Positions 56,415-62,842 of a stretch of DNA of 64,000 bases are shown one piece after another. The position numbers and the translations under genes are program-made. The notes under the pieces were generated by a model. It had not been told where the DNA came from, searched no databases, and saw only the letters and a program-made list of their open reading frames with translations. Source of the stretch: Thermoanaerobaculia bacterium (GTDB taxonomy: Bacteria; Acidobacteriota; Thermoanaerobaculia; Multivoradales; UBA5704). The stretch spans positions 596-64,595 of the forward strand of contig JBBRUC010000003.1 of the NCBI GenBank assembly GCA_038248205.1, read 5' to 3'. Every line of letters begins with the position of its first letter. Position 1 is the stretch's first letter.

Positions 56415-59390
56415 CTACTTGAACAGCTTTAAGAAGACCACATAGACCACGAAGCCGTCGTCCGGCCCGGCGACCGGAACGCCTAGGTCCATGCTGACGA
56501 TCGTCTTCCACGGGCCGATGAAGGTACCGGCGATTCCGGCTCCGGCGAGCAGCTCGTTGTCGAGCCCGGTGTCTTTATCGGTCGCCCAGGCGGCATCGCC
56601 CAACACGTCGAGGCGGAACAGGTCGCCGAGGGCGAAGCCGTACGAGACGTGCGCGGCCGAAACATCGGTCGCGCGGACCCGATTGCTCTGGTAGCCGTGG
56701 ACCCGGGTCGCGCCGAAGAAGCCGAACTCGTACTTCGAGAAGCGATCGAGATCGCTGCCCGAGAGGTAGTTGACCTGCGCTGAGAAGCGGGTGAATTTCG
56801 GCAGGTTCCAGGTCTTCGCCAGCGACGCCTCCCAGCGTAGGTAGTCCTTCTTGTCGGGGTCGTAGTCCGAGTTGTCGGCAAATCCCCACGGCTCCCACTT
56901 CGAGCGCCGGTGGTAGCTCCCGCCGAGGTCGAGCCGGTAGCCGCTCCGGGCGTAGCGGCCGGACAGCTCGATCCGCTGCGCGATGTTGTTGCTCGGTAGG
57001 CGGAAGGAGGGATCGGCGGTGTCGACCTTGGAGTAGGTCGAGGAGACCAATCCGTACCGCAGGCCCCACTTGAAGAAGTTGCCCACCGGATGCCCCAGGT
57101 TCAGGGTGAAGCTCGCCGGGCGAACCTCCACCTCCTCGGCCGTCACCTCGCGATTGTCGCGGTACAGCTGATCCGAACCCGCGATCGCCAAGCCAAACAC
57201 GTCGGCGCCGAAGTCGAACTTAGTGCCGAACAGACGAGGCTGGGCGATGTTGCCGATCAGCAACAGGCCGCCGAAAAACAGGTTGACCTGTTGGCCGGTC
57301 CCTTTGAAGTCGAGCGAGAAATAGTTGATCCCGGCCAGCGGCAGCGGGTAGTCGAACGAGTCGTCGTAGAACAGCCCGCCGGCCAAGAACAGCTTGTCGC
57401 GGTCGAACCCTTCCTTCACCACCCGCTCGCCTTTCTCGTCCTTGACCAGATAGCGCAGGCCCTTGGCGGTGTCCCGTACGATCGTCGCATCGGAAGCGTT
57501 GGCGGCTTGGCGCGCCTCGCCAAAGCCGTCGGCGTTGACCTTAACTTCCGTCAGCTTGGTTTCGCGTTCGACGATGGTCGCCGTGTTGACCACCGAGAGG
57601 ATCTGCTGCGCGAGGACCTTGAGCGGGAGAATAAAGCTCCCGGGCTCCCAGGGGGCGGGAGCGCCGTCGGCTTCGATCGGGGAATAGAGCAGCGTCTCTT
57701 CGTTCGACAGCACCTCGCCTTCCAGGCCGAGCTGAACGGCGCGTGTCTTCAACCGGGACGACAACTGCTTGTCGATCCACACGGTCCCCTTGTACAGGCG
57801 ACCCTGCGCCGCGATCGCCTCGCCGACCGGTTCGAAATCGACCAGCCAGGCGGCGCGGCCGTCGATCGTGTCGCTGCCGCGTAGGCGGTAACGGTATTTC
57901 TTGTCGAACGTGATCTCGCCCGGCATGGTCGCCGCCTTTTCGGGCTGAATCAGCGGGATCTCGGGGATCTCTTTGCTCCGCCAGCGGACGCCGTTCAGGT
58001 ACAGGCTGGTCCAAACCCAGTCGGGCGGCGTGTCGCGCTCGACGAAGTACGGCCCTTCGAGCGTTACCTCGATCGTCTGGGTGCCCGCCGCGGGGAAGCG
58101 TAGCGAGGTCGTGTTGATCGCCTGGTAGTGATCGATCCGTCGGTTCTGCGCGTCCTCGAAGGCTTGCAGGCGGCGGAGGATCTCTTCCACCGTGATCTCG
58201 CGATCGCCCGAGACGGTGAGCTTTTCGGCGATCCCTTCCCGCTCCGCGGCGGTCGGCCGTTCGAGCGCCAGGATTTCAACCGGCGCGGGCTCGGAGAGCC
58301 GGATCTCCAGGCCGCCGCCCGCCAGTTTGCCGTTCGGCGCCCCGACCTTGCGCGCGAAGTAGCTATAGCGAACCGGCCGGCGCAGCTCGGCGTCGGGAAA
58401 CTGGAGCACCAGCTCCGGGGAGCCCGGGGGAGTGACGGCGATCACCCGCAACCCGAGATCCTTACCGCGCACGAAAGCCCAAGCGTCGGCGCCCGAAGGG
58501 GTGGAGGTCGGGTCGTAGGAGAGATCGCCCGCAAATTCGCGCGCCAGCAGCACGAGCGGAGCCAGGAGCGGGTTCGTGCCCGGCGTTTCGCCATCGGCCG
58601 GTTCGGGAGCCGCGGGGGCCGCGATCAGGGTGAGGGCGAGGCCCCGGGTGAGATTGCGCGCCGCTTCGGAGAGCACCGCGCCCGGTTCGTCCGGCGCGGG
58701 CGCCGCGTCGAGCACCACGGGGCGGCCCGGATCGAGTTCGGCGAGCTTGGCCGTGGCGGCCTCGATCGCCGCGGAATCGGCCGGCGCGAGCGCCACCGCT
58801 TCGAGATAGGCGGCGATCTCCTCGGCGTAGAAAGCGGTCAAGAATGCCGGGTCCGCCGGTAGCGGCCCGGCCGCCACCTTGCCCTCCGGCGCGGCACCGG
58901 TCAAAACGACCGCCGCGCGCTTGAGCAGGAATCCGTATTGGGCCGGGTCGAGCGCCGTCGTTTCGCCGGGCGTTCCACCGTCCGGACGCCAAGACACTTC
59001 AAAATACGCGCCCGCCGGAGCCGCGGCCGCGATCTTCGCCGCCTGGCCGAGTTCCCCCTGCAAGCGGTCGAGATTCTGGGTGAGGGGGGCCGGGGTACGA
59101 AAGACGAGCGACATCCAGGGGGTCGCACCGATGCCGAACAGCTCGGCGGCCGGAGCCGGATCGGCCGTGCCGTCAAGTTCCAGATCCCAGGCGACGAACA
59201 GGGGGCTTCCCGGTTCGAGCGTACCGGCCGAGAGGGTGGCGATGTCGCCTTGGATGGCGGCGAGGTCGGTCCCCGCGGGAACGCGAATTCCACCGCACGG
59301 CTGACAGGGCAGCGAGATCGCTCCGAGCGGGCCGGAAGCGAAAGCGATCAGGGAGAGGAGAGGGAGGGTGAGCGAGAGCGTGCGCTTCAT
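56415..59390 (-). CDS. large outer-membrane protein: Ala/Pro-rich N-region, LolA/RseB-like middle domain, Omp85-type beta-barrel
   Basis: A signal peptide follows Met 59390 (MKRTLSLTLPLLSLIAFASG). The middle reads YRLRGSDTIDGRAAWLVDFEP...GTVWIDKQ. The C-terminus has alternating beta-strand sequence with ATRVHGY...HVSYGF...LGDAAWA and ends LKLFK. Confidence 0.7.
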   Translation of the reverse strand: MKRTLSLTLPLLSLIAFASGPLGAISLPCQPCGGIRVPAGTDLAAIQGDIATLSAGTLEPGSPLFVAWDLELDGTADPAPAAELFGIGATPWMSLVFRTPAPLTQNLDRLQGELGQAAKIAAAAPAGAYFEVSWRPDGGTPGETTALDPAQYGFLLKRAAVVLTGAAPEGKVAAGPLPADPAFLTAFYAEEIAAYLEAVALAPADSAAIEAATAKLAELDPGRPVVLDAAPAPDEPGAVLSEAARNLTRGLALTLIAAPAAPEPADGETPGTNPLLAPLVLLAREFAGDLSYDPTSTPSGADAWAFVRGKDLGLRVIAVTPPGSPELVLQFPDAELRRPVRYSYFARKVGAPNGKLAGGGLEIRLSEPAPVEILALERPTAAEREGIAEKLTVSGDREITVEEILRRLQAFEDAQNRRIDHYQAINTTSLRFPAAGTQTIEVTLEGPYFVERDTPPDWVWTSLYLNGVRWRSKEIPEIPLIQPEKAATMPGEITFDKKYRYRLRGSDTIDGRAAWLVDFEPVGEAIAAQGRLYKGTVWIDKQLSSRLKTRAVQLGLEGEVLSNEETLLYSPIEADGAPAPWEPGSFILPLKVLAQQILSVVNTATIVERETKLTEVKVNADGFGEARQAANASDATIVRDTAKGLRYLVKDEKGERVVKEGFDRDKLFLAGGLFYDDSFDYPLPLAGINYFSLDFKGTGQQVNLFFGGLLLIGNIAQPRLFGTKFDFGADVFGLAIAGSDQLYRDNREVTAEEVEVRPASFTLNLGHPVGNFFKWGLRYGLVSSTYSKVDTADPSFRLPSNNIAQRIELSGRYARSGYRLDLGGSYHRRSKWEPWGFADNSDYDPDKKDYLRWEASLAKTWNLPKFTRFSAQVNYLSGSDLDRFSKYEFGFFGATRVHGYQSNRVRATDVSAAHVSYGFALGDLFRLDVLGDAAWATDKDTGLDNELLAGAGIAGTFIGPWKTIVSMDLGVPVAGPDDGFVVYVVFLKLFK

Positions 59391-59451
59391 GCGATCAAGC
59401 ATATCTAGATTCCCCGACGGCCTTCGACCGAGATAGACTCCGTACATTCCT

Positions 59452-60564
59452 ATGGAATTCTCCGGACGCATCGAAGCATTCCCACCGGGCGATCTTCTCC
59501 AGTGGGCGAAGAACGAGCGCAGCTCCGGCGCCCTCGTCTTCCGGAGGAGCGATCGCGAAAAACGGGTCTATTTCAACCACGGCGAGATCGTCTCCTGTCT
59601 GTCGAACGATCCGGCCGAATATTTCGGCCAGCACCTTCTCTTGAGCGGCGCGATCACCGAGGACCAGCTGTTCTCGGCGCTCACCCACTGTACGCGGAAA
59701 GGGGGGCGCCTCGGCTCCGCCTTGTCCGATCTCGGCATCCTGGAGCCGGAGGCCGTGCAGGCCGCCCTTCATGAGCACATCCACGACCTGATCTGCGATC
59801 TCTTCCTCTGGGAGCACGGGGTTTTCTACTTCGAGGCCGAGCTGCCCCCGGAGGAGGAGATTCTGCCCCACCCGATCGACTCGATGGGCGTCGTGCTCGA
59901 AGGCACCCGCTGGGTGGACGAGCGGGGGCGCATGCGCAAGGTGTTCGTCCACGACAACGTGGTCCTTCGCCGCGGGCGCAATTGGCCGGGCAAGAACCTC
60001 TCCGCGGCGCAGAGGAAGATCTCCGAGGCGGTAGACGGCAAGCGCACCCTGCGCGAGCTGTACCAGGTGGTCCGGGGCTCGTATTTCCGCTTCCTGGAAA
60101 CCGGCTTCGGCCTGTGCGTCAATGAGACGCTCGACATTGAGGACGTCGGCGATCCGGTCGAGTCCGGGACTCTTCAACTGTCGGTTCTGGACCTTCTGCT
60201 CGAACGCGCGGCCGAGGAGCAGTCGCTGATCGCCCGCAGGCACATGGCGATCCCGCTCGACCTGCTGGAGCGCGCGGTGCCGATCTGGGTATTCGAGCCG
60301 GCGGAGGAAGAAAAGAAGCGGATGCCCACGCGGGCAAGAGAGTTCTACGACCGGATCGACGGCGTCACCGCTCTCGCCCAGGCGTTTTCGGGCGATCCGC
60401 GCCTTCGCGGCAAGGAGATGGACCTGTTGCTCCACCAGATGCAAAAAGGGCGCATCGCACTCCTTCCTGCCCCTCTGGCCGAACTCGATCGCGGCGCCGA
60501 CGAGGTCGACATGCCGCAGCCGAAGCGGTGGTGGCGGCGGGTGTTTCCCGGTTCCGCGAGCTGA
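59452..60564 (+). CDS. DUF4388 (PATAN-like) domain protein
   Basis: The N-terminus GRIEAFPPGDLLQWAKNERSSGALVF...VYFNHGEIV matches the DUF4388 pattern as I recall it. Confidence 0.65.
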   Translation: MEFSGRIEAFPPGDLLQWAKNERSSGALVFRRSDREKRVYFNHGEIVSCLSNDPAEYFGQHLLLSGAITEDQLFSALTHCTRKGGRLGSALSDLGILEPEAVQAALHEHIHDLICDLFLWEHGVFYFEAELPPEEEILPHPIDSMGVVLEGTRWVDERGRMRKVFVHDNVVLRRGRNWPGKNLSAAQRKISEAVDGKRTLRELYQVVRGSYFRFLETGFGLCVNETLDIEDVGDPVESGTLQLSVLDLLLERAAEEQSLIARRHMAIPLDLLERAVPIWVFEPAEEEKKRMPTRAREFYDRIDGVTALAQAFSGDPRLRGKEMDLLLHQMQKGRIALLPAPLAELDRGADEVDMPQPKRWWRRVFPGSAS

Positions 60565-61082: not shown

Positions 61083-61544
61083 TCAGCCGTAGCTCTGCAG
61101 GTGCTCGTCCAACGACCAGATCCGAACCGGCCGGCCCGGGTTCAGTTGGCGCTGGCGCTCCCACTCCTGGACGATGCTCAAATCTCCGAAGCCGCTGCCG
61201 CGCCCGCGGGAGTCGGTTCGCTTAACCCAGTCGGGGAACTGTTCCAACCAGGCGAGCACCTGTTCGGATTCGAAGAACGGAGTGGGCCGGAAGGGTGCTT
61301 CTCCCTGAATCGCCTGGCGGACGAGCTGCACGAATCGCTGGGCCGCCTGCCTTCGTTGGGTGCCCTTGCCGTTCTGCCCGATCAGGTTGCCGGTCTCGAA
61401 GATCGAGGTCATCGGCAGGAGGAGCGTGTCCCGACGTTCGATCTTCCTCTTGATCTCGTCGCTGATCTCCCGGTGCCGATCCGAGCAATTCGGCACCTGG
61501 AGCAGCTCGCAGAGGATGCTCGTATCGAGCAGCCAGATGTTCAC
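61083..61544 (-). CDS. PIN-domain nuclease-like protein, partner of the upstream ABC ATPase
   Basis: 153 aa with a GTG start overlapping the ATPase stop (GTGA). Acidic residues sit at PIN-like positions: D7 (IWLLDTSIL), E50 (SIFETGN), D121 (GFGDLSIV) and D146 (WSLDEHL). Confidence 0.65.
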   Translation of the reverse strand: MNIWLLDTSILCELLQVPNCSDRHREISDEIKRKIERRDTLLLPMTSIFETGNLIGQNGKGTQRRQAAQRFVQLVRQAIQGEAPFRPTPFFESEQVLAWLEQFPDWVKRTDSRGRGSGFGDLSIVQEWERQRQLNPGRPVRIWSLDEHLQSYG

Positions 61545-62842
61545 GAGGCGATGCGAGCCAGGTTGTCGACCCAGGCAAGGTCGCGCCGGATGCTGGCCTC
61601 GTCGTCGGCCGGCATCCTTAAGTAGCGGTCGAGAATCCCTTTGGTGACCAAGCGTCCGATGGTGCCTTGGGCGATCAGTTCCGGATAGCGCGACAGATCT
61701 TGCAATCGAACCAGGCGGCTCTCACCGCTCTTGGGATCGCGGTAGCAGGCGGTGGCATCCGGGATGGCATCGACCGGGATCGCGTCGAGCAGTGCGGGGT
61801 TGTGCGTGGTCAGCAGTACACGGAGCTTTCTTTTCGCCGCGACGTTGCGGATGTTCCGGAGCAATTGTTCGGCCCGGCTCGGGTGGACACCATTGTCGAT
61901 CTCTTCGACCACTACGGTTGTGCCCTCGGCGACCGAGAGAAGCGCGGCAGCCACCGCGAGAACGCGAAGCGTACCGTCCGAAAGGAGCGCCGCTTCGCGC
62001 GCTTGGGTTATTCCGCCGAAAGTCTCGTGCAACTGAACCATCACCTCGTTGCGCTCGGTTTCGAGGAACGTGATGTCGGTGATGTCTTGCTCCGGAAGGG
62101 AGCGAATGAAGTCGAGCAGGCGGCCCTTCGAGGTCCGATCCTGGCAAAGGCGGTAGAGTACCGCCGAGAGCGCCGCACCATCGCCCGAGAGATGCTGTTC
62201 CTCTTTGAAGCTGTAGCTTCGCATGCGCCGTGGCGAAGGGTCGAGGAAGAGAATGTCAGCCAGATTGGCTCGAACAACGGCTGCGGCAAACGGTATCGCC
62301 CGCTGGGCCTGGGGATGCGCAAAACGGGTGGGAGTGGTCAGCTGGGTAAAGACAGGCTGTTGATCGATGCCCAGGATGCGAGGTTTCTTGCCACCCCGAG
62401 CGAAGTTGTTATAAGCGATCGAGATTTCGTTGCCTCCCGGGCGTGCCGGCTCGGCGATCTCGTAGAGAGGGACACTCGAATCTGAGGCCCGATCGTGGAG
62501 TGCCTCCGCACTTACTCGCATCCCCGAACGATTGATCGCCAGCTCAAGATCCAGGTTCAGCGGAGGCCCATTTCCACCGAAGGTGCAGGAAAAAGCGATT
62601 CGTCCACCGGCGTGTTGCAAATCTGAGAGCCCTCCGCGGATGTTCAACTCCTGCTCGCGGATTGCATAGAGAAGATCGGCCAGGCGCCGTCCGGATGCCG
62701 CCCAAGAGAGCAGCTGCATCGCTTCGAGATAGTTGCTCTTGCCCGAGGCGTTCGCGCCGATCAGAACCGTAAGGGGCGCGAGATGAAGCGTCGCCGCCTT
62801 GCCAAAGCTCTTGAAGTTGCGGACGCCAAACGATTTGAGCAT
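61541..62842 (-). CDS. ABC/SMC-type ATPase (AAA_15/AAA_21-like)
   Basis: The N-terminus is MLKSFGVRNFKSFG. Walker A is GANASGKSN and the ABC signature is LSDGTLRVL. Walker B/D-loop is VVVEEIDNGVHP and the H-loop is LLTTHNP. Confidence 0.85.
   Translation of the reverse strand: MLKSFGVRNFKSFGKAATLHLAPLTVLIGANASGKSNYLEAMQLLSWAASGRRLADLLYAIREQELNIRGGLSDLQHAGGRIAFSCTFGGNGPPLNLDLELAINRSGMRVSAEALHDRASDSSVPLYEIAEPARPGGNEISIAYNNFARGGKKPRILGIDQQPVFTQLTTPTRFAHPQAQRAIPFAAAVVRANLADILFLDPSPRRMRSYSFKEEQHLSGDGAALSAVLYRLCQDRTSKGRLLDFIRSLPEQDITDITFLETERNEVMVQLHETFGGITQAREAALLSDGTLRVLAVAAALLSVAEGTTVVVEEIDNGVHPSRAEQLLRNIRNVAAKRKLRVLLTTHNPALLDAIPVDAIPDATACYRDPKSGESRLVRLQDLSRYPELIAQGTIGRLVTKGILDRYLRMPADDEASIRRDLAWVDNLARIAS

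Follow-up and report, generated by a model that had tools for sequence, protein, structure and literature searches.

A chromosomal copy of the candidate defense pair PDC-M07, an OLD/PtuA-like ATPase coupled to a putative PIN nuclease, in a Thermoanaerobaculia bacterium

ATP-binding cassette (ABC) ATPases act together with nucleases in several anti-phage systems. In PARIS, once AriA has sensed Ocr, AriB is freed and cuts tRNA; PtuAB, the ATPase-nuclease pair of Septu and of retron Ec78/Eco7, degrades host tRNA-Tyr. OLD-type ABC ATPases paired with HNH, PD-(D/E)xK or PIN nucleases have been described in BREX loci, where they are read as backup suicidal effectors (PMC12839542). HEC-03, which joins an ABC ATPase to a VapC-like PIN protein, has been validated; it depends on both of its genes, and inducing it proves toxic (Payne et al., 2024, bioRxiv 10.1101/2024.01.29.577857). 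The same study lists 145 untested candidates (“PDCs”) embedded in BREX, DISARM or type I restriction-modification (RM) loci, and its supplementary table assigns the cassette CAS_00050 (FAM_00005>>FAM_01367) with the words “Assign as candidate PDC-M07,” beside which stands the number 406, taken here as a count of RefSeq instances. We describe a two-gene locus of a Thermoanaerobaculia bacterium (assembly GCA_038248205.1, contig JBBRUC010000003.1, positions 596 to 64,595; this whole stretch of 64,000 nucleotides (nt) is the “window” below) in which the gene for a 433-amino acid (aa) ABC-type ATPase (gene A) runs directly into the gene for a 153-aa protein of predicted PIN fold (gene B), and we set this pair beside the systems just named.

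A preliminary description of this DNA, made from the sequence alone, had put the pair forward as an undescribed defense module. That part of the proposal fails, because the models of PADLOC-DB v2.0.0 already assign both proteins, over their full length, to PDC-M07. A matches the PDC-M07A model PDLC04393 at 2.9e-168, its residues 1-429 aligning with positions 1-430 of the 435 in the model, and four further M07A models match as well. B matches the PDC-M07B model PDLC04395 at 1.1e-56, its residues 2-152 aligning with positions 3-155 of the 161, and its six PADLOC matches are all to M07B models. The genes also stand in the order laid down for PDC-M07, A then B, adjacent and on the same (minus) strand. 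Judged by these matches, the window has one more intact, chromosomal copy of a catalogued candidate, not a novel type of system. It shares with PDC-M07 the full-length matches of both proteins, their order, strand and adjacency, and the embedding in BREX and RM loci was recovered among the loci of our census (see below); the window copy differs only in its host, a Thermoanaerobaculia-like acidobacterium, and in not being embedded in a defense system. The architecture had been read correctly from the start: an ABC/OLD-type ATPase translationally coupled to a protein of predicted PIN fold whose acidic tetrad is intact.

The larger protein has the complete set of ABC-ATPase motifs that had been ascribed to it; every motif was located in the translation (Table 1), and the core residues of each are invariant in an alignment of 25 A homologs with 53-85% identity, so that chance does not account for them. 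A also passes the Pfam models expected for such a protein, AAA_21 (1e-29) and AAA_15 (3e-16), both above cut-off. Its AlphaFold2 (AF2) model (predicted local distance difference test score, pLDDT, 84; predicted template-modeling score, pTM, 0.83) has as its best structural match PtuA of Septu and retron Ec78/Eco7 (E ~1e-12, template-modeling score (TM) 0.4-0.5), followed by Rad50/SMC heads, and no solved structure close to A was found by sequence alone. Its neighbors among the PADLOC models suggest that A belongs to the OLD clade. One C-terminal segment (residues 391-412) is conserved, with G396, L398, T400, G402 and R406 invariant, and is modeled with low confidence; it is, speculatively, a candidate partner-binding element.

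The smaller protein required a different kind of evidence. Against the Pfam PIN family B reaches E=0.12 and 13.4 bits vs a cut-off of 23.6, and thus stays below the gathering threshold; there was no NCBIfam match, and a search of PDB sequences with the B profile returned only noise (E ~1), so that the PIN call is drawn from predicted structure. The AF2 model of B is confident (pLDDT 94.4, pTM 0.87), and in a Foldseek search of the PDB its top ~40 matches are all PIN domains, among them PAE0151, VapC20, VapC15, FitB and SMG6, with probability 1.0 and TM 0.56-0.68, although the E-values are just ~1e-3. The four acidic residues that had been nominated as catalytic are all present and strongly conserved among 40 B homologs (Table 1), and in the model they fall at the end of strand 1, in the helix at 45-57, at the N-terminus of a helix and just past the last strand. 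The same 40 family members gave seven matches to PIN-clan models at E<=0.01 (best 1.8e-5, to PIN_4), and the only Pfam models reached by any of them were PIN, PIN_4 and PIN_12, with no family outside the clan. Because the acids are conserved, the model is confident and the PDB and Pfam matches are to PIN domains only, structure prediction and conservation together indicate that B has a divergent PIN fold and keeps its acidic tetrad intact; the assignment to the PIN clan thus fell short in Pfam and stood in AlphaFold and Foldseek. The family is large, an exhaustive search with the B profile returning 1,106 representative clusters at 50% identity (820 at E<=1e-10) from bacteria and archaea, and among the best 150 matches listed nearly all are stand-alone proteins of ~150-165 aa. 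Compared with VapC toxins, B has motifs specific to its family (ETGNHIGQ, RR, WLxxFPD and IWSxD) and about 20 extra residues.

HEC-03 has the same layout as our pair: downstream of its ABC ATPase gene (DUF3696), and overlapping it, lies a gene that encodes a ~155-aa PIN protein. The two PIN families are nevertheless unrelated at the level of sequence, the HEC-03 PIN and the B profile aligning with an hhalign probability of 1.5%, and the HEC-03 PIN matches only its own PADLOC model just as B matches only those of M07B. The HEC-03 ATPase shares 24% identity with A (E=1e-10), with many gaps and around generic ABC motifs; A has no Pfam match to DUF3696, and HEC-03 models are absent from its top 25 PADLOC matches. 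The two comparisons led us to reject the pair as a copy of HEC-03; since the PINs are unrelated and the ATPases share only generic identity, it is analogous to that system and not a member of it. (The lettering of PADLOC models can depart from the order of the genes, since the model labeled HEC-03A, PDLC04147, is the one that matches the HEC-03 PIN, the second gene in the table of Payne et al.)

Membership in PARIS, Septu or AbiL was likewise rejected, because each has a different effector and the scores stay below threshold. PARIS has an ATPase of the same clade (AAA_15/AAA_21) and the same two-gene, sensor-effector plan, and AriA models match A at 6e-29 and 7e-18; they do so in part, at its ends alone, and AriB is a DUF4435/TOPRIM effector whereas B is a predicted PIN protein, Pfam and PADLOC finding neither TOPRIM nor DUF4435 in the pair. 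Septu and retron PtuAB also join an ATPase to a small nuclease, but there the effector is HNH, PtuA and A are only 13-15% identical across their structural match, and the NCBIfam PtuA model gives A 29.1 bits vs a 500-bit cut-off; no HNH gene, retron or reverse transcriptase is present at the pair. AbiL and HEC-01 have ATPases of a related clade (HEC-01A 5e-33 and AbiLi 2.4e-29 on A) and TOPRIM effectors of the DUF4276/RloB type in place of PIN, and some of the more distant relatives of A in our census are themselves paired with DUF4276/HEC-01B proteins.

The census was built from the ATPase alignment and comprised 80 genomic loci, 36 of them with a close A (profile score >250 bits); since the loci were gathered from the ATPase, the count of adjacent genes is unbiased towards B. 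In two of the 36 the contig ends at A. In 32 of the 34 informative loci the next gene after A, in the same orientation, is a homolog of B, which bears out the expectation that the two genes are co-localized in other genomes. Coupling is tight: the 31 complete pairs show a 4-base overlap (16), another overlap or zero gap (11) or a gap of 6-10 nt (4). Pairwise identities of A and of B co-vary as well (Mantel r=0.587, a value reached by 0 of 2000 permutations). The hosts of close A are scattered over Pseudomonadota, Cyanobacteria, Bacteroidota, Planctomycetota, Spirochaetia, Bacillota and the archaeal Methanothrix. Some copies have decayed—two loci (L001:11302-14418 and L015:6670-10667) have an intact A and no trace of B, a third (L007:11320-11550, counted among the 32) has lost all of B but its C-terminal half, and in a more distant copy (L031:9914-11782) both genes are frameshifted. 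The pair also occurs on nine plasmids, among them pUC06D, an 11-kb dairy plasmid of Lactococcus lactis, and the 9-kb MOBQ Acinetobacter plasmid p10FS3-1-10 (L083:3167-5713), on which it adjoins a RelE/ParE toxin gene with its helix-turn-helix (HTH) antitoxin and a qac-type SMR efflux gene. No deposited phage genome with the pair was found, and two IMG/VR contigs have it. One of these (39 kb; L089:2300-11653) encodes a gpA-type large terminase, then A-B, a DUF3800 protein and an 869-aa SMC_N/AAA_21 ATPase, and looks like a small defense cluster at the end of a prophage. Tightly coupled and co-diverging, A and B are conserved as one unit, and the distribution of this unit is patchy and mobile. 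The census as a whole supports a defense module.

Defense genes recur around these copies. When 229 neighboring open reading frames (ORFs) were compared with PADLOC, they included type I methyltransferase, restriction and specificity subunits, BrxA/B/C/P, PglX, JetC, components of MADS, and IetA. In one locus (L006) the order is BrxC, A-B, PglX; in others BrxC (L039) or JetC (L021) lies directly upstream of the pair, or HsdR adjoins it (L018). The pair is thus associated with defense loci elsewhere, at BREX, type I RM and Wadjet systems; in this genome no recognizable defense island surrounds it.

We think it probable, by analogy with PARIS, Septu and retron PtuAB and the validated HEC-03, that the pair, as a copy of PDC-M07, couples its OLD/PtuA-like ATPase to a PIN nuclease in an abortive-infection logic of ATPase sensor and PIN effector. 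An oligomer of A would keep B inactive and would serve as the sensor of infection, perhaps recognizing a protein of the phage, for instance one that counters restriction; binding of this trigger, or the binding or hydrolysis of ATP, would then release or activate B. Once active, B would most probably cut host or phage RNA (tRNA or rRNA, as PINs of the VapC type do), and this cleavage would abort the infection. RNA is the likelier substrate because every structural neighbor of B is a PIN of the RNase type, including VapC20, which cleaves the sarcin-ricin loop. If A does sense anti-restriction proteins, the frequent nesting of the pair in BREX and its placement beside RM and Wadjet loci would make sense, since it would form a second line of defense there. 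The fuller proposal, that PDC-M07 is a working anti-phage system whose PINs form a distinct clade, unrelated in sequence to those of VapC and HEC-03, and cut a specific RNA once the ATPase senses a phage factor, we hold tentatively, at a little short of even chances.

Several observations weigh against the sensor-effector interpretation. The literature yielded neither an experimental test of PDC-M07 nor a paper that names it, and PADLOC candidates that have been tested sometimes fail (HEC-01 in one study, PDC-M63 and PDC-S04 in another). The association of PDC-M07 loci with defense genes is qualitative, having been drawn without a matched control of random loci. In the window itself the pair is flanked by CBS, DUF4388 and TPR genes and not by defense genes; the series (TPR, A, B, CBS, DUF4388 and a protein of ~1000 aa) recurs in a relative with an A of 83% identity, and because synteny is kept there the pair is stably inherited in the Thermoanaerobaculia-like lineage. 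Lastly, the compositional anomaly of the pair is weak. The G+C content of A and B together is 0.617, whereas the window averages 0.644 (sd 0.031), and a value this low is reached in 21% of segments of the same size. What had been described as a pair less GC-rich than its flanks therefore lacks significance in raw G+C and persists only at third codon positions (GC3) of A, the sole outlier at 0.71 vs 0.81-0.85 in the neighbors; B, at 0.85, is ordinary. A recent transfer argued from the raw dip was rejected on this ground.

Of the other explanations, the one that survives best, though we judge it unlikely, is that the pair is a toxin-antitoxin (TA) or addiction module, with B as a VapC-like toxin and the ATPase in place of VapB, stabilizing plasmids and islands by post-segregational killing. 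The likeness to VapBC is real enough: the fold of B comes closest to VapC toxins, with which it shares the site of four acidic residues, and the order of the genes (neutralizer first, PIN second) and their 4-nt overlap mimic the VapBC operon, in which the partner also lies upstream and overlaps. The pair occurs on small plasmids that can be mobilized (9 and 11 kb), in one case next to RelE/HTH genes, and HEC-03 is toxic on induction. Yet the partner here is a 433-aa enzyme whose motifs for binding and hydrolyzing ATP are all invariant, which is not expected of a labile, stoichiometric antitoxin; Pfam detected no DNA-binding or autoregulatory domain in it, in contrast to VapB with its DNA-binding antitoxin domain, and no small ORF with a VapB-type domain (AbrB, MetJ/RHH, PhD or HTH) lies between A and B. 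B itself, unlike VapC, is below the Pfam threshold for PIN. Many copies, moreover, lie inside BREX or beside RM and Wadjet loci, and TA and abortive-infection roles can coexist. A pure addiction role is plausible for the plasmid copies, and is a poor fit to the conserved ATPase site and the embedding in BREX.

Less probable still, and in our view distinctly doubtful, is that the same sensor-effector module is non-abortive and that B acts on the DNA of the invader, in the manner of FEN/5'-nucleases or of restriction enzymes. The PIN-like superfamily does include DNA nucleases (FEN1/ExoIX and Mut7-C), the best structural relatives of A (PtuA, Rad50/SMC) are DNA-handling families, and the pair associates with systems that target DNA. 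Against this, every top structural match of B is to a PIN of the VapC, FitB or SMG6 RNase type, and its 153-aa model has neither a helical arch of the FEN type nor an H3TH element; PtuAB and PARIS, for their part, cut tRNAs despite nuclease folds of the DNA type. A housekeeping role in repair or RNA processing, as a RecF/Rad50-like ATPase with its nuclease and no part in conflict, is very improbable because the distribution is patchy over distant phyla and archaea, mobile (plasmids and prophage) and sometimes decayed into pseudogenes or partnerless copies, the pair being absent from the same site in sister genomes; in its favor are the conserved chromosomal synteny among non-defense genes in this lineage and the weak RecF, SMC and Rad50 matches at the N-terminal Walker A region of A, whose scores fall far under the RecF/SMC family cut-offs (31.9 vs 172 bits).

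The layout of the locus agrees with the preliminary description. Both ORFs are intact on the minus strand where it had placed them, the stop of one and the start of the other sharing the bases GTGA (Table 1), and they do lie between unrelated genes: a convergent CBS gene (Pfam 9e-31), whose end is 15 nt from the stop of B, and a TPR gene upstream of A. Consensus scans for promoters and terminators between 60900 and 63100 found none, a result that is uninformative at 64% GC.

Table 1. Features of the PDC-M07 candidate pair, in positions of the 64,000-nt window.
Feature	Position	Strand	Evidence
Gene A: 433-aa ABC-type (OLD/PtuA-like) ATPase, PADLOC PDC-M07A	61541..62842	minus	ORF, ATG start, Pfam, PADLOC, AF2
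Gene B: 153-aa divergent PIN-fold protein (predicted), putative nuclease effector, PADLOC PDC-M07B	61083..61544	minus	ORF, GTG start, PADLOC, AF2, Foldseek
4-base overlap GTGA: GTG start of B over TGA stop of A, translational coupling	61541..61544	minus	sequence
A, Walker A / P-loop GANASGKSN, residues 29-37	62732..62758	minus	translation check; 9/9 residues invariant in 25 homologs
A, probable Q-loop region DQQPVFTQL, residues 160-168	62339..62365	minus	Q162 and Q167 invariant; assignment inferred from position only
A, ABC signature LSDGTLRVL, residues 287-295	61958..61984	minus	L287, S288, D289, G290 and T291 invariant
A, Walker B and D-loop VVVEEIDNGVHP, residues 310-321	61880..61915	minus	V310, E313, E314, I315, D316, N317, G318, H320 and P321 invariant
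A, H-loop LLTTHNP, residues 343-349	61796..61816	minus	T345, H347, N348 and P349 invariant
B, Asp7 (DTS motif, end of strand 1), first PIN acidic residue	61524..61526	minus	at least 90% conserved, with T8 and S9
B, Glu50 (ETGN motif), second PIN acidic residue	61395..61397	minus	invariant in 40 homologs
B, Asp121 (GDLSI motif), third PIN acidic residue	61182..61184	minus	invariant in 40 homologs
B, Asp146 (IWSxD motif), fourth PIN acidic residue	61107..61109	minus	at least 90% conserved; I142 and W143 invariant

The site itself differs among relatives. In genomes whose DUF4388 gene is 75%, 65% and 64% identical to that of the window, the site is without the CBS-B-A-TPR block, an absence that fits a variable region and an older acquisition. 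In one of these, a Thermoanaerobaculia relative (L086:7249-11177), a 1083-aa RM enzyme of the MmeI-type IIG kind and a 225-aa ORF take the place of the block next to the DUF4388/PatA_N gene, and the position beside the DUF4388 gene may be a variable, defense-prone spot.

Two further features of this neighborhood deserve mention. The window has at 56415-59471 (minus strand) a 1018-aa ORF with no Pfam match, divergent from the DUF4388 gene and conserved in synteny; in relatives it measures 990-1074 aa and is adjoined by an Smr-domain gene. Upstream of the TPR gene of a close relative (L081:7012-9946) lie, one after the other, a canonical Pfam PIN protein (146 aa), a 67-aa ORF and an AAA_2/Mg-chelatase-like ATPase that overlaps the TPR gene—a second PIN-containing small operon near A-B, at a position that would lie beyond the end of the window (64000).

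The census also brought to light a sister clade of ATPases (loci L035-L065 and L079, for example L041:10001-11898 and L053:10001-11814), ~30% identical to A and with PDC-M07A as their best PADLOC match (4.8e-66), in Dehalococcoidia, Vicinamibacterales, Caldilineaceae and Binatia. Here the ATPase is translationally coupled to a conserved protein of ~187 aa with no Pfam or PADLOC match, whose motifs IPED, CVDRDG and AWEExExWxLAG resemble TOPRIM/DUF4276; hhalign gave it a probability of 0.2% vs PIN and 0.7% vs DUF4276, which confirms neither. The two proteins appear to form an uncatalogued pair of ATPase and effector. If PDC-M07 is a working anti-phage system of the kind proposed above, this sister clade would be one more case in which a different effector has been joined to one sensor chassis.

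These results do not overturn current understanding, the concept of an ATPase joined to a PIN protein having already been demonstrated in the non-homologous HEC-03. For annotation, two genes that would otherwise be entered as “hypothetical” or “AAA ATPase” can be labeled as a PDC-M07 candidate defense pair. Because PDC-M07 is widespread and compact (1.76 kb) and has obvious residues to mutate (in A, K35 and E314; in B, D7, E50, D121 and D146), it lends itself readily to validation. If it proves functional, it would add another type of effector to the systems that combine an ABC-ATPase sensor with a nuclease (PARIS, Septu, Gabija and HEC-01 to HEC-04), and would provide a second, independent ATPase-PIN solution to set beside HEC-03.

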